Notes under the pieces: generated by a model
What the model was told of the DNA's origin: nothing
Database searches by the model: none
What the model saw: only the letters and a program-made list of their open reading frames with translations
In this document: positions 33,501-62,300 of the stretch, in pieces
Position numbering within the stretch: position 1 is the stretch's first letter
How the letters are laid out: every line of letters begins with the position of its first letter
Position numbers and translations under genes: made by a program
NCBI GenBank assembly: GCA_036172245.1
Contig: JAYWIR010000001.1
Location: 5,332,001 to 5,396,000, forward strand
Length of the DNA stretch: 64,000 bases
Reading direction: 5' to 3'
DNA from: Raillietiella orientalis
Lineage: Eukaryota

Positions 33501-34280
33501 TAGCACATTTATGTCTTTTTTATTCTCTTCGTGTGACGGGGGCTCTGCTTGTCCTTAGGTTTCCTCCCTCTCCCTCTTGTCTTCGCGCTCCTCCTCCCAT
33601 CTTGAGACTTTGTTTCACCTTGTGACACGGCTGTGATGATTGCTCTACGGGATTTCTCCTAACTTCTGTATCCTGTCGCGCAATTAAAGTAATCAAATCA
33701 AGCCGATGCTTTCCCACCAAATACTTGGGGCACCTACCACAATTAAAAGAACGCGGGCGAACTGCGGTTATTAACGATAGGGAGCCAGCAGGTCCTGATG
33801 AAACACACGAGCCTCCATGCAGCTTATTATTACTGGAGATTATGCAGGAATACATCCGAAATTTTACTCAGCAGCTACTCCTAAACATTTCAGAGCGTGC
33901 AACTTTTCCAAAATTACTGTTTTGGAATCTGATTTACACGTAAATGCGTGAGAAATTACAGGATAGGGCGTCGCTTGAGGGCTGGACTTGCTGCGGTGAA
34001 TTTATCAGCTGATATCTCCGGAATATTTCGGAATCCTCTCTGTGTTCCAGCATCTGGGAAAAACCTGAAAGTGGATCGCCTGAGGGGGAAGGGAGAGAGA
34101 GAAATAGATTCCAAGGATTCGTCCGCCAGCATCCGAATGCGCTTCAGGTCGAACAGGAATGACGACGAAGAACCGATACCGCGGCGACCTCTCGCGCCGC
34201 GATTGGTAACAGCACGCTTCAGGTTCGGCGAGCACGTTTTCCCGGAAGGAGCGTGGATTCCTTCCCATACCCGCGCCCGT

Positions 34281-34575
34281 TCAATCAACAGTGTGCCCCC
34301 ACCAGGAGAGTGTGGGTGTGGGATTCGAACCCGCAACGCTTAGTGCTACGCGCGGAGGCTGCATCTACGCAACTGTTTTCTTCTTCTTCTTCGTCGCCTC
34401 CTTTTTCTTCTTATTCGTCTTTTTCTTTTTCTTCTTCTTCTTCAATCAGCGGAACGCCTTCACCAGGAGAGCGTGGGTGTGGGATTCGGACCCACAACGT
34501 TTAGTGCCACGCGCGGGGACCATAGCCACGCGTCCGTTTTCTACTTCTTCGTCGCCTCCTTTTTCTTCTTCAGTC
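34281..34575 (-). mobile_element. Two tandem tRNA-derived SINE-like units (~161-bp period)
   Basis: Minus-strand B-box GGTTCGAATCCC at ~34320-34331 and a variant GGTCCGAATCCC at ~34481-34492. Both units share caccaggagag.gtgggtgtgggattcg.accc.caacg.ttagtgc.acgcgcgg and a ttcttcgtcgcctcctttttcttctt tract. Units start at tcaatca (34281, 34442). Confidence 0.65.
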
Positions 34576-37238: not shown

Positions 37239-39060
37239 TGCCACCCGGGTACATCTGGGGCATTTATTAAAAACTCTACAATACGTGGTACAAGGCCCCA
37301 CTGACGGCCAATAACACCGGATCTGCCGGGACTCCGGGACGCAGCCCAGTGTGACTCTCCTCGGCAGTGGAAATGGATGGGGGAGAAAATAAAAATAAGG
37401 AAAAACAAAAAGAGTTTGGAGGGACGGGAAGGAATCACTGGCCACTGGGAGGAGGGTCCATCCTTTGCAGGATGCCCTCGAGGTCCATCCGCATTTGTCC
37501 CAGCTGGGGCCATCCCGTTGCTCTCACTAGAAAGCGAACAGCATAAGGGATGACGTCCCTCTCGTTGTGGCTATCTTCTTCGTCGTGGGCATCACTCCAA
37601 GTCGCCACGATGCCTCGGATGCAGCATAGTGCTGCAACGGCTGCGGCCGGCTGCAGGGCGTCCCGCGCGAAGAGAAGCCGGAAAACGTGTCTGGGTTCGC
37701 TGTCCACTGGGAGTCCGAGGGTCGTCCTAAAACGTTCCCATAGGGGTCGGAGGACAGCACAATCAACAGTAAGGTGGGGAAGCGATTCCCGCTCCCCACA
37801 CCTGGCACACTCTTGATGTACTCTCCCCGCGTCCAGTGGAAGCGGAGCGCGTTGCAGGGTAGACCCCAATGCAACAGCAGCAGCGCCGACTCTTGCCACT
37901 TCAGGGGGAGAATCCTGGATCCAATTAACACTGGGGGACACTTCAGGTCATCCGTCGGGATGCCGAGCAGCTCGCCCCATCTCATCAGTCCACGCGGAAG
38001 GACGCTCGGGGTCGTGGCATCCACCAGTTCTCCCGTGGTCCAGCCTCTTAACTTCCTATCTCTGCCTGAGATTCGGCAGGAGACTTGCCACTTCGGCGTC
38101 CGGCCGCTGACAAGGGCCCTCCGTAGGAAGGGCAGCGCCGTAGCTAAAGGGATGGTCTCCGCCCACGTGCTCCTGGCAGGACACTCCAGAATGGTCCGCA
38201 GGGTGCAGCGGGTGTAGGGGCCGAATCGCAGGCAGTTCCAGTTGTAACTTCCCTGATTAATCTTCTCCCAAGTTCCAACTGCTTCCTCCAGCCATGCGGA
38301 GGAGTTTGCGGGGCTGCATACTATCCAGCCGTTCTCCTTCACCAGTGTGGCCATGCATCCAAGGAGAAGGCCTCATCTTCTGACCTTGCTGCCGGGGCAC
38401 AGAAGATAAGACGCGAGTCCTTGCATCCTGGAGACACGGCTGGCGAGCAGGCAGGCCGGGACGCACCAAGGGGTGTTCCACAACTTCGCTGCGATGGCCA
38501 AGGTTCGCCATAGCAGCTGTACTTCCATCCGCTCCAGCGTCAGGAAGCCAAGACCGCCGTCCCAACGCGGAGGGCACAAGTCCTTCAGCTTCACTCAGGG
38601 CCTTCCGTTGTCCCACAGGGCGATACGGAGGAGGCCCTTGGTCCGCTTCTTCAACAGGGAGGGGGACGGGCCAACAAAAAGCAGGGGGCGGAGGATGGGA
38701 GCCACGAACGCGTTTCATACCGCGGCCCGTTCCGGCAGAAGGAACTTGCCTTCCAGGAACGGGCGGATTGGGGTGCACGCGGATGAACGACGACCCCTCC
38801 CGTTCTCCCCAGGAGCACCCTATATTTTGTGTGTGCACCGCAGAGCTCCGGATAACGCGAAGCTGTATAGCACGAGGCGACGAAAGAACGGCGGCAGTCC
38901 TCGTACAACGCGGTCGAACAGTCCGCCTTACGAACGCTGTGGATGAATTCCAACTTGGTGGCAAGGTGGCAGCTCAGGCACTCTAAAAATCTTGTGCCAA
39001 CACGTGATCTAAGCCGGTTGAATCGTGGAACAATGAGGATGATGGAGGCGAACCTACAGA
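37239..39060 (-). mobile_element. 5'-truncated L1/Tx1-like LINE: RT thumb, zinc finger, 3'UTR
   Basis: LCPPRWDGGLGFL at ~38580-38545; KWQE..LLLHWGLP; CARCGERESLPHLTVDC...LW at ~37810-37735 (canonical CCHC finger); stop at 37435; 3'UTR with AATAAA at 37263-37268. Few frameshifts in the 3' 1.3 kb, more eroded towards 39 kb. Confidence 0.9.
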
Positions 39061-53799: not shown

Positions 53800-54700
53800 T
53801 CCTCGACAGGGGACCGGCAAAAGTGGAACAGCCAGGGGACAGCGGCTCTGGGCGCCGATGGCGCGCCGGAGCCGCCGAGGGAGAGGGGAGCAGGTCGACC
53901 GGAGGCTGACGTCCTCGGGTGTAAGCGGATGGGACAGGAGAGCCAGGGGCTTTCTTTCTTGGTCGGATCGTCCGGGAAAAGGTGGGTAGGGACCTGGCGC
54001 GGAGAATCCCGCTGCAGCGAAGGGTGCAGAGGAAAGATCCGGTGAGGGGAGTCAACCAAATCCTACAGATGCCCCGAGCGTACCCTTCCATCTCCGTGCG
54101 CCTTCCACGTCCACGGTTCCTCCTTCGAGATTCGGAGGCGAGCCGTGCCCTCGGGCGGCGGAAGGGACGGAGGACTCTCCAGGCTGCAGGCGTCCGCGCT
54201 CCAGACTTCTCCCCCTGGCAGACTTCGGAGGCTGATCCTGGACATTCGCTTCGGCTGTTGGGAGCGCAAAGCTGCGGGGGAAGGAGCCCCTGAGCGCGCC
54301 TCCGAGAAGGCACCAACCAAAGCTGACGTGAAACCATCAATGAAAAAACGGAAAGAAAAAAACTCGAAACACGCAACGAAAGATGACGAGAGCGCACCCG
54401 GTGGCCACGGACTGCGAAGGAGATCAAAGTTCCCCACTCTTTCGGCTGCTGAAAGATGGATCCTTCCTTTCCTCCAGGATCGCTTATTGGCAGTCGACGA
54501 AACAGCATTCGATCTCGCGTCAGCGGCCGCGTCCTCGGAGGACGGAACTGCCGGGGCGCACCCCACGGCAGCGTAGCTCGAAAGCTGCCCGACGACCTCC
54601 TCCTCTGCCGAGAAGGGCAGCCTCTGACGATCATGATGAACTCCTGATTGCCATCTGCTTTCCAGTGAGGCAGCGGCAGTGGAGGACGTTGCAATTACAC
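53800..54700 (-). mobile_element. Decayed LINE reverse-transcriptase fragment
   Basis: GNFDLL (KAFD position), then FRFFIDGFTSALVGAFSEARSGAPSPAAL at ~54355-54270 (cf. VNG..S..F....GVRQG.PLSP.L). Confidence 0.55.
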
Positions 54701-54929
54701 TGGTGACATCGGAATTCCTCGAGGATTTCCGTGTGAGTAGTCAGCACACCACCGAGTCTTTAATCAAAGCCCGAAGAATGCTCTTTCTCTCTCCCCTTCT
54801 CTCTCTCTTTTGGTGCGTGTGGTCCAGCGAGGAAGCGGGACTCTACGTGCACGCGAAGCGAGATCTGCACCAGTGATCTTCTTAAGAACGAGATGAGAGA
54901 GTCACCCGCGGTCGCTCCGACACTGCGCT

Positions 54930-55169
54930 TTGGGTCATTCTTGCGCGAAGGAACGCCCCCGAGCCAGGCAGAGACTTCGACCCTGTGGAACAAACCGTAG
55001 ACGCAACCATGCCTGGAGGCTGCCTGGTTGCGTTTTGCAATGGTATCTCCTCTCCGGATTACACCTGTATAATATAAGGCTAGAAATGGAAAAAAAGGAC
55101 TGGAAGATGGTGGAGAGCCATCCCTGTTATTTGTTTTTGCAACATTACGTTCTTCTTAAAAGAAATAAA
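54930..55169 (+). mobile_element. 3' end of a Tx1-like LINE inserted in U2 snRNA (Keno-like)
   Basis: HAWRLPGCVL...IRLE is homologous to the ORF2 C-terminus of the element at 55800-60300 (22/22-nt identity). It ends in AATAAA (55164-55169) directly abutting U2 sequence. The 5' boundary is not resolved. Confidence 0.65.
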
Positions 55170-55670
55170 TCCGTTCTTATCAGCTCAATACACTGGTACC
55201 TTGGTACTCGTCGGTAATTCGTTCCGGAACCCGTGACGAGTGCCAAAACCAATGAATACCGAACGAGTTCTGTTCTAGGTTTCGTGGTATCATCTTGAAT
55301 CACTTTTAGGACCCATGATTAACGCTTACGATGCACAGAAAGCACAAAAAAGGAACGATTCGGGAGGCACTCTATGGAAGTGTTTGGCAATGTTCGTGAG
55401 CTACCGTGAGACGAAAGCGTTCGCTCCTTTCATCATGAGAGTGGGATGTCGAGTTCCGAGCGTGAGCCGAGTGTCGAAACCTTTCTTTCTCGTCAAAATG
55501 TGACGAGTACTGAGTTCGAGGAGTTCCGGTACCGTCGAGTACCACTGTATCTGATATGCTACCTATCTGGTGGCCAGTATATTAAACTACCTTTTGGAAG
55601 TGGACAAGATGCTTGGAGCTTGTTCCTCTCCCGTCGTGGGTTGACCTGGCATTGAAGTACCTTTGGCCTC
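55170..55670 (+). pseudogene. U2: U2 snRNA pseudogene or fragment (lacks the first ~38 nt; split by a MITE)
   Basis: tccgttcttatcagctcaata [insert] tctgatat gctacc-tatct-ggtggc cagtatattaaactaccttttgga ... ggagcttgttcc ... gggttgacctggcattgaagtacc follows metazoan U2 (TCTGTTCTTATCAGTTTAATATCTGATA ... ATATATTAAA..ATTTTTGG ... GGAGCTTGCTCC ... GACCTGGTATTGCAGTACC). Stems IIa and IIb still pair; the Sm site and loop IV are mutated. Confidence 0.92.
55191..55547. mobile_element. Non-autonomous Tc1/mariner-superfamily (Tigger/pogo-like) MITE, 357 bp
   Basis: TA duplicated at 55189-55190 and 55548-55549. Termini cactggtac...gtaccactg (CAGTGGTAC TIR, 1 mismatch). Subterminal gtactcgtc/gacgagtac inverted pair and a Tigger-like taattcgttccggaa. 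Removing the element restores contiguous U2. Confidence 0.88.
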
Positions 55671-55799
55671 TTCCGATGTCCCTCTGCTGCCGGCCGATCC
55701 ACCGGTAGCGAAGGAAGAGATCAGACCGGATTCGCACTCACCCATAAGTTTGCGCGCTGGCCCCAGTAGGAGATGCAGGGGGGAGGGGGGAAACCGAAA

Positions 55800-58700
55800 C
55801 AGGCAGGGCTATAAAATAAGGGTCTTCCAGACGAAGACTTGTGGAATCCGGAAAAGTGGGGGATGCCTCCTCCAGAACGCAACCAGGCAGCCTCCAGACG
55901 TGGGTTCCGCTCGGCAGAGGGCCGTCCGAAAGGCCGCCGTCCGCTCTCCTCCGCCCCCGTTCTAAAACTGTCCTGATGTTCCGAGGGCTTTCGCAGGCCT
56001 TTTCCGTTTTCCCGTCCTCCTCTGGCCCGATACCTTCCTGGCCGGGTTTAGTCCCTCGTGGCTCTGCATGCACACCCTGGGGCCATTCCGATGGAATCCC
56101 GAGGATTTCCCGTGTTGACGGACGACGGAACGTCAGGCACTTCCTGGACCCCATTAGGACCCTCGGTGAAATTCTCCCCCTGCTCTGCGTTCAGTTGGAT
56201 CGAGGAAACCCCCGGGTCCAGGATCAGCGCGGCGTGAAATTCGTTCCGAGGCGACGCTCCTGCCGAAGGAAGAGGGAAGAAATCAGAAGATAAATGCTCC
56301 GTGGCTCGGAATCCGGGACAGAGATTTCTCTTAATTTTTCTTTCTTTCTTTCTTTATTATTTGAGCATTTCTTAGAAGGAAAAAGACTGGGAGGAACTTG
56401 AACCAAGGTCCTGCACGAAGAACCGACCGTCCAATGGTTGCACGTGTTCGCCAGGAGAAGCTCCTGTGAATCGTAGGGTCCCCTTAGCCGTTCACGTTGC
56501 AATGACGCTTCCTTTAGATGCTCCAGATCAGAGGAATACGAACCCAGCCTCTCTCCTTCCCGCACGGAAGGATTTTCCAGGATGAGAGCACCCCGAGGGT
56601 CTAGACGGCGAAAGCAAGAGGAAACTTCCAGGATGAGGGCCGACCCGAACTCGCAGATGTGCCATCCCCTCCACGAACAGGGCCGAGCTATCCGTGGGAA
56701 ATGGCGACGCTGGCGCGCGAGGTTCCTCGTCCACGCGCGACTGCGGCCAGGCACCACCGAGATCGCTTCCCCGCTACCTTGAAGGAACGTCCCCTAGCGC
56801 GCAAGGAGCCAGGTGTGCCGGGTAGAGAGCTTTTGCGCTGGCCGGCAGCAAATGGGCCTTGAGTGTGAGGATCCCTCCAGATCACCTCGGCGAGCTGCCC
56901 TGTTCCGAGATTTGGACGGTTCACATCCGTGAGACGGAACGCATCTCATCTTGCTCCGCACGCTGGATCTTCCGCTCTCTTGGGTTCAGCGCTCTCCAGG
57001 AAACGGCTTGCGTGACCACGGAAGGTTCTCAAGAACCCTCGCGAGAGGCAAATCGGCGGAATCGCAGGAACTCGAGATTCCCGTCGATGCGGTCAAATCC
57101 CGATTCGAGGATTCCGTCTGCAGCAGCCGGTGAAAATCAACTCGCAGGCGAGGCCGGCGTAGAGTGGGCGTGACCCTCGAGAGAAGCCATCACCCTGTTC
57201 AGAAACCTTCGGGATAGTCAACTGGGTGGATCGCCCATCGGTCACGAACGAGGCCAGCATCTCTCATGATCTCTCCCGCTTTTGGAGCCGCAAGGGAACA
57301 GGCAGTCTTGCGCTCACCCAAGAACTCCCAGATGCTCCTTTGGAATTTTTGGATTGGAAAATTTTCAAAAAGAATGCAACCGTGTAAACGGACGCCAACT
57401 GCTTCACTTGGTAACCAATAGAGATCTGGACTGCCTCTTGGGGCCAACTTGGCAGCGCGGAGACATTTCAGTACTGAGTTTCCGCAACGAAGCAACCACG
57501 GATGAGGAGGTCAGACCGACGAATGGTCGGCATCGCTGCTGCGCAGCCAGCTCGGGTCGTCGGCTCATTCGCGTTCCGGACGGTCATTGTCAGAGGTTTG
57601 TCCCAAGCGCCCGCATCCTCGCTGAACATTTCAAAGGCATCTTGTTTTGGGGGGTGGATGGCGCGTGGGAAACCCGCTTAGGTCCGGGGGAACGACGTCG
57701 CAAGAAATATCAAACGGGCACGGATTTTCCCTAGCTCGAGGAAGTAACCCGTTGCCCCGGACTACACATCCGCGTTTTTTTTTCTTCTTCTTCTACCTGG
57801 GACCGTAGGAGGATGAATTTTCGCGTCCACGCTTCCATAGAAGTTCCAACCTACAAAAGAGGCAGTTAAGGGCCAAGCAGTTCAGGAAACCCAAGTGCAG
57901 CTCATCGATTGTTCTCTGCTGCTCCTCGACACTCTGAGATTTTTGCTTTTTCTAGCTCGAAGAATCTTCAGCCTTTAGTTTGGGCTTCAGAATCGGGAAT
58001 CGTAGATGGTTCATTGTTCACATCAACTCCTTGAGCTGCATATCTGATTAAATACCCCTCTCAAATCGGCGAAATTCCATTTCTTTGCTGACCTCGTGCT
58101 ATCTGAGGAATATTTACGCCCCTTACGACCAGTGATGTCGAAAAATTCCTTGATTCTTTAGCACTAGCATTCTACGCACAGAAACAGCCTTCCACCATCC
58201 AGTGCCCAAGAGGTTTCAATTAAGTGAGGAAACCTACATGCTGTAACCATGATTCTGTGTTCCTTTCAGTACTTCTTGCATTTCGGTAGATTCTTGGGCT
58301 GTCTTGCTATTTGACACTAAATGAGTGCTAGCCAATGGCGGGCATTTTCAGGAGAAGCTTAGCGCTCCACAGCACGTGAAGATGCACATCCCATCTCTGA
58401 AAAAGGAAAGAAGAACCTAGAAGAGATCCGAGTGGGAAGCACTTCGCGCTCGCATCAGTCAGTAGGAGCGGAATGTGTGCTACCTGAAGACTGGAACGCA
58501 GAGCCCTGGATGAAGAACAATCGACTCTTCAGAGGAAGAGAAAAGTGATGTCTTATGAGCGGAAAATGCGACAGAGGAGTTGTGGGCGAACGCTCCGCGC
58601 TATGCTGGACGTAAGCGCGGTCTCCCGAAAGTTGGTCGAGAAAGATCCACTGAGCACTGGTTGGTTCGAAAGCTTCGTGGTCTTCATCCTGCAACGCGGC

Positions 58701-60300
58701 CCACACAATCGACTGAAAAGTGGCCGTTAAATTACAGGAAACAGGAATGGCAGAACTGGCGTAGGAGTGAAAAGTTCATCAGGACGCCTTCGGAAAATGG
58801 GGACAGCAGTCGCAGCCATCGCGTCTCCGTGAACGCCCGTTCTCGAGTTCAGTCTTGATGCAAGGGTCGTGTGTGCTTTCATCTTGCTAAGCAACCCTTT
58901 GGGTACAGAAACTGCAAAATGATGAGGAAGGCAACGGGAAAATGAGCAGCGCGTGATCCTGCCCATCGTTCCGGCCATCTCTCGGTTTGCCAATCTCCAG
59001 AACTTGGCAGATTTTACGGATCAGTTCGTTTTTTGGATGCGGGATTCCATCGTTGGGATTTTCGAACCGCCATTGAAGATTCCAATCATCAGCTTCCAGC
59101 TTTTACGGTTCGAATTTTTCACCACGCATCCACGAACCTTCTGAGAAAATGCTGGTTTCGGAAATGCGGCATTCCGACCGGATTTCGGCTGCAGCAACTG
59201 AGCGCCTTTCCCCTCGGGAATGGTTGCTTTTCCTTGTAATCCCTGAATGCCGCCAACAGTGGCATTTTCCGTCCTCTCAAGAAACTGAACTACAGGAGTC
59301 ATCATTTCTTTAGTTTGCCTTTCTCGGAATCTTTGAGAGAACATTTTTGGGGGGAAAAGGATATTGCTTTCAACTCCTGCCCTGAGCGCCATCCCGACGT
59401 TCCACATAGCAGCCGGTCGCTGCTGCTGAAGAAAGCCGGTATAGCATACTGGCTTTCTTACACAGCAGCGACCTGTTGAGATGGTGACTTCAGTTTATTC
59501 GGACCATTCCAAGGGTGATCAGCAGAAAGTCCCCACATAACCTCGTCCCAAGAGGTGTCGTCGGAACCCGCTCTCGTCTACGTTTTCTCAAGAGAAGGCA
59601 TGGTGTGAGTGTTGCTGACAACCCTTCCTTCTGCGGCTCCCACTATTGGCTTCGCCTCTCAGAGAAAAACAACCACCAGCAGCGGGAGAGCACCCTGACC
59701 TTGAGTGCCGCCACATGGGCAAGAGTCGTGGGCTTGTGGAATAGGGAAGAGACGTGCAAGATCTCAGAGCTGAGAAAGCTCCTGGCATGTCAAGAGACGA
59801 CGACCCTGTTTAGAATGCTAGGATGAGCGCCCCAGCCTCATCCGCAGAAACAGTGCCATCTCCAGTGTGCATTTTTTTGTGTGAGCGCGCGCTCCTCTGA
59901 TTGTTTGGCAGGAAACAAAGGTAGGGAATGAATTTTGGCGCAGTCGTGGATGGTGGCCGATCTTCTGCTTGAATCGCCGGTGTGAACAAGCGAATCAGCA
60001 GCAAGCGATCCCCGGTGACCTCTTGACCGGGAGAGCAAAGAAACTGAGTGGGAAGCGCGAGAAGCATGGAGGTGGAAGCCCGGGCAACGGGACACAGGTG
60101 GTTTAGGAGGGACGGGCAGAGACAAAGCTCAGCCTCAGAAAAAGCTCGAGAAGTGTGGAAGGAGCTGAAGAACTGTTGCAAGTGGGTCTTCTGGATCGAT
60201 CGTGCTCGTGGGAGCCATAAGCCAGAAACGGTGCTCAAAGACTAGTTGGAAGTGGGATGTTCCACCCCTCAACTTCCCACAGTTCTCCTTTCCCAACAGT
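55800..60300 (-). mobile_element. Near-full-length decayed Tx1-like LINE ORF2
   Basis: SIQKTHL at ~60195 (cf. LQETH); GDRLLLI at ~60015; SWKLMIG...FWRL at ~59100-59000 (cf. WKLN...W); ENAR and QHVGF at ~58350-58230; EFFD at ~58145; ISCDV (YADD position) at ~57700; IQKFQRSIWEFLG...LAAPK...GLV at 57355-57250; HVWRLPGCVL at ~55900-55873. Span and order match a ~4.4-kb ORF2. Many stop codons. Confidence 0.75.
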
Positions 60301-60449
60301 GCTCCTGCCTCAACAATATTCCTTCTCTAATAATGCTCCTTCCTTAACAGTGCTTCTTCCCCAGCGATCCGTCTTGGACGTGAAGTCGGCAACAGCGAGA
60401 AACGAGAATTTTTCGGTTCTGGAGTCTTCATGGTGCCGCTAACGGGAAG

Positions 60450-62300
60450 CGGCGGGAACTCGGGGCATACCCGGACTCCGGAAATTCACATCGGAGGAAA
60501 ACTCCCCCAGTCTGCGGAGCCCCAGCTCGACTGCAGTAGTATTAAATGAAACAACTTCCACGGTGGGAGCGTCGGGACGGGTGTGCATCACGGGGTGTGC
60601 AGTCCCGTGACGAAACCGTTCTCCTTCCTTCCCTTCTTCCTTTGGAAGTTCCGGCCAAGGCATTCCCGGGACAGAACGGCAGCAGCGTGGGATGCTTCAC
60701 TCATGTACCCCTCTCGAAAACACGAACAGGAGATCCGCCTTCCTGGAGTGCGGGACTTCCGTTCGGCGGATGCCCGGCGCTCGCTCGGAAGAAGCGACTG
60801 CGAGCAGAAAGCGCACGACGCGGTCCGGGAGGCGAAGACGCTCCGTGGGTTTCCCTTTTTCTTCCCGGAAGCCGCCCTCCGGAGTCCGAATGCTCCCCCT
60901 TGAGTAGTCTGCACCAGCTGGGGCGCCGCCGAATTCCATCCCTCCGTGCGATCCGCCGCGGAGCTTCTGCAAGCGGCGGCACTAGGCGAGTGAAATACGA
61001 GCGACCTCTTCGGGATCTCATCTTCCGGCTTTGGCTTCTGGGGATCTGATCATCCTTCACTAGGGGAAGATGAGTTCTTGTTTTGTTCGTCCAGGAGACC
61101 CAAGGAAGATTTTCCGAGCCGGCGAGCGAGTTATGAGGGCTTTTCTTTCGAAAACAAGATCTCGCGATTGCCCTTGGAGCCTTTCTTTCGTCTCCATGGA
61201 GAGGGAATCAAAAGGGGAAACGTCTCGCAAATCAACTACGATTGCAGTGGAGAGCTTTCTTCTTCTTTTCTTTTCTTTTCTTTTTTTTTTTTCTTCCCCT
61301 CCTGAGCTCCCCTCCTCCTTTCGCTGCGCCACCACCCTTCCGGCGAGGGTCATCAAGACCAGGTTCTTCTGTTAGCATCCTCAAGGCCTCCCGACAGCCC
61401 GCCTGCTGGGCACTCCATTTTCCCTCGAGGTCTTCCCGGACAGCTCCCCTCGGACCACACCGACCTCGGCATCGTCCTGGGCGTCTGCCACGTCCGGGAT
61501 CCACAGCTCTCCTGCTGGAGGTGCGGTCCCAAAGCTACGCACGTCTGAAAAGCGGATGCCCGCCGACTGACTGCCGGCGGCAGCCACTGACGGCCCTCGA
61601 GATTCGCGGAGGAACGAGCAGAGGCGCGATGATGTGGAGGGAGGAAGAGCTCCCTTCTTCAGGGGAGACGGCCTCGAGCCCCACTGACATCCCTCACCGC
61701 TTCCTAGCTCGCCGCCGACTGCATGCTAACCCGGACAGGACGTCTGTTCGGCCGCTGAACTGGCGCACAATCCCTCTTTCCTTCCCTACTCTCGTGGATG
61801 GGGCTCGCTGGCGGCTGGCTCCCTTCCGTCGATCCTTCCCCCCGTTCAACTCCTTCGTCCCCTTCCCGCAGCAGCGTCCCTTCCCTCGGTGTGCTGCGGA
61901 CCCAACCGGTCGTGCAGCGGCAGCTTGCCGACCTCATCCTGGCCCCAGCCCTCCCTGAGGGACCTAGGAAAAGATCCGAGGGACCAGGCCTGAGAGTGGG
62001 AGCGCCCCTGCTCCGAGTTCCCTCCGGGACGCGCGGTCCATCAGGCATTCTGGTCAAAGCTCTCTCGTGCAAGCGTGGACCAGAGCATTGGGATTCCTCC
62101 GTCGTCTTCCCGCTGCCGCGGTTCTGAGCGGCCGGCGCTCTTCCCAGAAGACAGCGTCGATCGCTCCCGCTCCTGCTTTCGGACAGGCCCTTCCCCGTCG
62201 CTCCCTGGATCCCTGGTGATGACCTGCGACCGCCCCGCGGGAAAGCCCCACGCTTCCCCACAGGTGCACTCCACAGCTCTCCAGAGAGGATTCACGGGCA
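60450..62300 (-). mobile_element. Possible decayed LINE RT fragment
   Basis: PGPSDL at ~61985 (cf. PGPDG), AIVVDLRDVSPFDSL at ~61245-61200 (cf. A.V.LDL.KAFDS), GADY at ~60910, ERKS at ~60760. Confidence 0.4.

Follow-up and report, generated by a model that had tools for sequence, protein, structure and literature searches.

Utopia elements are U2 snRNA gene-targeting RLE non-LTR retrotransposons of the NeSL clade (PMC4640811), and Keno elements are Tx1-clade APE non-LTR retrotransposons that are specific for U2 (PMC4640811, PMC4494074). Kojima and Jurka (2015, PMC4640811) place the start of the U2 flank on the downstream side of Utopia at nt 39, present disrupted U2 genes without the 5'-terminal 38 bp as a signature, and describe the U2 flank on the 3' side of Keno as identical. 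They also report that a fragment of U2 nt 1-38 was not found upstream of Utopia in Phytophthora, and that weakly specific crocodilian Utopia copies carry short U2-like motifs at their junctions. R2 SIDEs are short non-autonomous elements that derive by internal deletion from a site-specific element (Eickbush and Eickbush 2012, PMC3414825).

We compared these systems with a locus in a 64-kb window, the window being the whole stretch of DNA that was analyzed. The locus resembles Utopia (PMC4640811) in a 3' flank that starts at U2 nt 39, in the missing upstream 5' 38 nt of U2 (as in Phytophthora), in the placement of a disrupted U2 beside an element 3' UTR, and in a tag at a second copy that recalls the junction motifs of the weakly specific families. 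It differs from Utopia in being a short non-coding tail, with no RT, zinc finger or RLE detectable at the locus. The locus is also like Keno, which inserts at this site and has an identical U2 flank on its 3' side (PMC4640811, PMC4494074); in contrast to Keno, neither an APE nor a Tx1-type RT was found, and an ORF2 at 55800-60300 was undetectable. In the manner of R2 SIDEs (PMC3414825), a short element without coding sequence that retained the 3' sequences required for target-primed reverse transcription at a specific RNA-gene site would resemble the repeated module described below, although the two module copies fit SIDEs and 5'-truncated full elements alike.

A U2 remnant that begins at nucleotide 39

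The initial annotation had proposed that an AATAAA runs directly into U2 from nt ~38/39, and that this junction is the Keno/Utopia target site; both proposals were borne out. The hexamer was followed directly by U2 snRNA sequence from 55170 (Table 1). In the numbering of PMC4640811, the first of these bases is U2 nt 39, an exact match to the 3' junction published there. At no more than two mismatches, the published U2 flank motif TCTGTTCTTATCAG matched the window once (0.29 expected by chance), at TCCGTTCTTATCAG (55170-55183), the sequence right after AATAAA.

Table 1. Positions of the features at the U2 locus, in window coordinates.
Feature	Position	Strand	Remarks
Module copy 1, non-coding, taken as a retroelement 3' end	54985..55169	+	Conserved block 55007-55130; A-rich tail ending in AATAAA at 55164-55169
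U2 snRNA remnant, piece 1	55170..55190	+	Starts at U2 nt 39, TCCGTTCTTATCAGCTCAATA
Non-coding insertion, 357 bp	55191..55547	 	Terminal inverted repeats and TA target duplication; in the loop of the first U2 hairpin
U2 snRNA remnant, piece 2	55550..55682	+	Reaches the 3' end of U2, with RF00004 aligned up to model position 192 at 27.1 bits; several stem pairs broken
Junction-like 14-mer AATCCGGTCTGATC	55719..55732	-	12 of 14 bases as in the copy-1/U2 junction AATCCGTTCTTATC; 66 nt 3' of the copy-2 conserved block
Module copy 2, inverted and diverged	55733..55925	-	Conserved block 55798-55903

No U2 match was obtained at the Rfam gathering score, which for RF00004 is 46 bits. At an E-value threshold, U2 was matched at 55529-55682 with 27.1 bits (E = 0.0029 in a 1-kb scan and 0.19 over the whole window), a score that applies to a copy without nt 1-38, split by a 357-bp insert that was still in place. 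Model positions 85-192 aligned with high posterior probability, with several stem pairs broken, and the 5' part of the alignment was misaligned because of the insertion. Once the insert was removed (55191-55549) and the remnant was folded, the hairpins UAUCAG/CUGAUA and GCUACC/GGUGGC were obtained, followed by an Sm-like CCUUUUGG; we take the two hairpins to be U2 stem-loops IIa and IIb. The U2 architecture that follows nt 39, comprising two 5' hairpins, the Sm site and the 3' stem-loops, was present in the 55170-55682 remnant.

The initial annotation had not found the first 38 nt of U2 in the window, and our searches agree with this. A junction-spanning 16-mer and two U2 5' motifs of 20-21 nt gave no match in the window at up to three mismatches, and an Rfam scan of 54600-54960 for the U2 5' part returned no match at E up to 10. 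In a by-eye comparison, about one quarter of the bases in 55132-55169 were identical to the U2 5' part, which is the random level. We rejected a faint by-eye likeness between 54709-54745 and the U2 5' part, as it required a large deletion and Rfam was empty in 54600-54960. The 3' end of the remnant was not followed by poly(A), and the remnant is therefore not an ordinary (LINE-made) processed pseudogene. The U2 gene at this locus is decayed, without its first 38 bases, and abuts foreign repeated DNA at the Utopia/Keno site.

The sequence that splits the remnant has the termini CACTGGTAC... and ...GTACCACTG, with further inverted-repeat matches over ~40 nt, and is bordered on either side by TA (55189-55190 and 55548-55549). 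Taking out the insertion together with one TA (55191-55549) restored ...ATCAGCTCAATATCTGAT... in the U2 sequence. Terminal inverted repeats, a TA target-site duplication and a host sequence restored on excision, by which MITEs are recognized, were thus all found for 55191-55547, and we take these features to indicate the Tc1/mariner-type MITE class (Stowaway-like). The insertion looks like a Tc1/mariner-type MITE that landed in pre-existing U2 sequence. It has terminal inverted repeats, the TA duplication and zero coding capacity in common with MITEs of this type, but differs from them in being single-copy in the window, where a transposase partner was not found.

The repeated module and its inverted second copy

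A blastn comparison of 54.0-61.0 kb with the whole window recovered one relative of the DNA upstream of U2, in inverted orientation, with 55007-55037 aligned to 55873-55903 (31 nt, 90%, E = 6e-5). An nhmmer search with the module recovered copy 2 at E = 3.5e-5 and no further copy in the window at E below 1. Beyond the 31-nt core, the alignment contained the patches TCCGGATT.CAC, CTGGAAGA and AGCC.T.CCTGTT, which took the similarity as far as 55130 (+) and 55798 (-). The exact 22-nt core had no match in collections of metagenome contigs and genome contigs. Farther upstream of the module, the two copies showed no protein-level or DNA similarity.

The upstream DNA had been interpreted as a retroelement 3' end by its homology to an ORF C-terminus in 55800-60300. 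The repeated module fits a retroelement 3' end; the homology to a C-terminus did not hold, as the likeness amounts to ~125 nt of non-coding-looking sequence (55007-55130 against 55798-55903). Conserved patches alternated with unalignable stretches of unequal length, and the reading frames differed between patches. Since the patches do not lie in one reading frame, they suggest conserved non-coding motifs and not a protein C-terminus. Diverged 3' UTRs would explain this pattern more readily than a recent duplication would.

The junction 14-mer had two matches, including itself, on both strands of the window (128 kb), where 0.25 were expected; the second, with two mismatches, is the minus-strand 14-mer beside copy 2 (Table 1). 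By our own arithmetic, a 14-mer match would fall by chance within ~100 nt of the copy-2 spot with a probability of roughly 2 in 10,000. The U2 likeness at copy 2 ended after 12 bases, with the 3' end of the plus-strand U2 remnant 36 nt beyond. Of the two module copies in the window, one is flanked by U2 from nt 39 to the 3' end and the other by a 12-nt U2-like tag. The unalignable segment before the tag comprised 38 AT-rich nt in copy 1 and 64 GC-rich nt in copy 2. We considered the module as an snRNA promoter element and rejected this reading, which does not fit because the distances to the U2 junction are unequal between the copies (39 nt vs 66 nt).

The same two-tier hairpin was folded by both module copies, with z-scores of -2.1 and -1.15 that are not significant. 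A 6-bp hairpin with a T-rich run was observed at 55106-55131 (+), CCTGTTATTT, and at 55813-55838 (-), CCTTATTTTA; the bases differ between the two, and equally many such hairpins were seen in shuffled sequence. Neither a 5' boundary nor a target-site duplication of the inserted element was found at the locus. A DNA transposon with terminal inverted repeats that captured U2 was rejected, as the repeat fades outward with neither a sharp edge nor a duplication and is sharply bounded on its inner side, where it meets U2.

The junction tags at 55170-55173 and 55727-55730 both read TCCG, and the published U2 target motif reads TCTG. The shared TCCG could reflect a variant of U2 in this host, a tag that belongs to the element, or the duplication of one junction.

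Search for coding sequence in the window

The initial annotation had also placed an APE-type, Tx1-like ORF2 at 55800-60300. We did not recover a reverse transcriptase or an endonuclease there by Pfam, by PDB or by a search of 1.84 billion proteins with the 58730-60241 frame, and the claim is not supported. Among 103 stop-to-stop ORFs (45 aa or longer) from 54.1-61.3 kb, none matched a reverse transcriptase, endonuclease or transposase family in Pfam; ten of them had weak, unrelated matches (E 0.009 to 0.23), all under the curated cut-offs. Five weak, unrelated matches were likewise obtained from 136 ORFs in 43.4-54.9 kb. Read through in all six frames, 54700-60600 matched no Pfam family (E up to 1). 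Searched by phmmer against all PDB sequences (E up to 10), the minus-strand frames of 55741-60241 gave 0, 12 and 1 matches (best E 0.051), with no RT or endonuclease among them. The frame at 58730-60241 (-) had no match at E up to 0.001 among 1,835,955,588 representative proteins.

An ORF2 of the Keno type (N-terminal APE and Tx1-type RT) was therefore not detected by Pfam, PDB or the 1.84-billion-protein search. For an ORF of the Utopia type (RT, C-terminal zinc finger and PD..D/ExK restriction-like endonuclease), no RT was found in 43.3-61.3 kb by Pfam on ORFs and read-through frames; we know of no Pfam model for the RLE domain. Over the whole 64 kb, the ORFs tested contained no Pfam family at the thresholds applied.

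G+C content of the window is 60%, and the observed/expected ratios are 0.94 for CpG and 0.39 for TA; the CpG ratio speaks against a vertebrate host. Stop codons are scarce in all six frames, and long open frames in the window are therefore not evidence of genes. We counted 6 stops in 590 codons at 55741-57510 (-) and 5 in 504 codons at 58730-60241 (-), the fewest of the frames. Over the six frames, 3-8 stops per 500 codons were found in 52.5-54 kb and 8-18 in 58.5-60 kb. The low count of 58730-60241 is not special, because TA-poor DNA (0.39 of expectation) leaves stops scarce in every frame nearby. By-eye motifs and few stops had made this frame a candidate for APE-like coding sequence, which we rejected on account of the general scarcity of stops and of the Pfam, PDB and 1.84-billion-protein searches.

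A different similarity was found inside the claimed ORF2. The translation of 57382-57555 (-) showed weak co-linear similarity to ribosomal protein S13/uS15 over residues ~23-30 and 67-101 (best E 0.021, ~49% identity), with stops nearby, and 35 of its 36 PDB matches at E up to 10 were to S13/uS15. Judged from this similarity, the segment is probably a decayed S13/uS15 pseudogene fragment.

Several other features of the window were observed. The window is rich in purine/pyrimidine tracts and in GT/GC microsatellites. Two tandem 131-nt units, 78% identical and 161 nt apart, with TTC-rich tracts after each, were found at 34280-34571; they sit in a G+C-poor stretch (32-34 kb, 46% G+C) in which ARAGORN found no tRNA. 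A tandem repeat of five copies of a 17-nt unit (69% matches) was found at 60279-60363. A protein-like ORF at 37530-38372 (-) had no relative at E up to 0.001 among 3418 candidates, drawn from proteins of 154-492 residues.

Origin of the locus and its meaning

We favor, as the reasonably probable explanation, that the locus holds one or two fossil insertions of a U2-site-specific non-LTR retrotransposon, 5'-truncated or non-autonomous. In support of this proposal, U2 starts abruptly at nt 39, which is the published Utopia/Keno junction, the DNA upstream of U2 recurs in the window, and its A-rich tail terminates in AATAAA. Observed at the locus are the breakpoint and the repeated module with its tag, as well as the MITE; the retrotransposition mechanism and the order of events are inferred. 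A site-specific non-LTR retrotransposon would have nicked a U2 gene, or else a DNA-level copy of U2, between nt 38 and 39, and reverse transcription primed from the U2 nick would have produced the precise 3' junction, in which the element tail is followed by U2 nt 39. The inserted copy would have been strongly 5'-truncated or non-autonomous, leaving ~160-240 nt of non-coding 3' sequence, and U2 nt 1-38 would have been lost, as in the Phytophthora Utopia insertions. The disabled U2 may then have decayed and later received, at a TA within the first hairpin, a Tc1/mariner-like MITE. The inverted sequence 36 nt past the U2 3' end, ending in the 12-nt U2-like tag, would be a diverged second relative of the element. 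Counting against the retrotransposon reading, only 12 U2-like bases follow copy 2, neither a 5' boundary nor a target-site duplication was found, the hairpin in the conserved block is not significant, the U2 match lies under the Rfam gathering threshold, and only two copies were examined. The window yielded no RT, APE or RLE, so that the module is not tied to a retrotransposon by anything at the locus.

We evaluated the possibility, which overlaps with this explanation, that the module represents a family of short SIDE- or SINE-like retroposons, non-autonomous, with 3' recognition motifs in common with a U2-site-specific LINE that inserts them in trans. Similarity between the copies is confined to ~175 nt beside the junction with nothing farther upstream, the patches are not in one reading frame, and no coding remnant adjoins either copy (Pfam, ORFs and read-through frames), all of which agrees with such a family. 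However, one short 5'-truncated LINE copy gives the same picture, two copies cannot define a family or a 5' end, and no tRNA-like or other head of the module was found; we regard this possibility as rather unlikely. A more specific version, quite unlikely in our judgment, is that the ~175-nt module is a SIDE family directed at U2 nt 38/39 and derived from an element of the Utopia or Keno type; its diverged subfamilies would keep the 3' hairpin and a few short motifs and would carry or select a U2-like tag even outside U2. We find it decidedly unlikely that a single insertion was followed by an inverted duplication of the junction region, which would make copy 2 and its 12-nt tag a rearranged duplicate. 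The arms 55007-55181 and 55719-55903 do form one long interrupted inverted repeat around the U2 remnant, and both tags differ from the published TCTG in the same way, an observation that the host's own U2 sequence would equally explain. Blocks of 85-100% identity alternate, however, with unalignable segments that differ in length and base composition, a pattern that uniform decay would not produce.

Chance offers a further explanation, in which a U2 pseudogene deletion or unrelated rearrangement ended at nt 38/39 and the upstream DNA is not retroelement-derived. The lack of RT or EN in the window, the single locus and the decay of the region are compatible with it, but a random breakpoint would fall on a given nucleotide of a ~190-nt RNA in only ~1 in 190 cases (our own estimate), and the upstream DNA is repeated, with a second copy that also has the junction motif; we consider chance very improbable. 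The reading to which we give least credence, as exceedingly improbable, is a Keno-like (Tx1-clade, APE-type) element with its ORF2 at 55800-60300. The junction site fits Keno as well as Utopia (PMC4640811), and the minus strand has few stops at 55741-57510 and 58730-60241. Against this, low stop counts are general to the six frames of this TA-poor DNA, none of the six read-through frames matched Pfam, no RT or EN was found in PDB, 58730-60241 had no protein match, and 57382-57555 (-) weakly resembles ribosomal protein S13 instead. The preference for Keno over Utopia in the initial annotation had no basis at the locus, with ORF2 undetectable and the homology non-coding; the non-coding tail does not decide between Keno (APE) and Utopia (RLE). 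The locus is without coding sequence, and the element therefore cannot be placed in a family or a tree.

U2-targeting retrotransposons offer a rare case of parasites that inhabit a low-copy essential gene family, and each fossil extends the map of their occurrence. The type of fossil is already known; what this locus contributes is a junction that falls cleanly at nt 39, together with a second, diverged module copy beside a short U2-like tag. The analysis also corrects the proposal of a Tx1-like ORF2 next to the junction. The main value of the locus is as a seed for a genome-wide search. If the SIDE reading is true, site-specific snRNA-gene parasites would carry hitch-hikers of their own.
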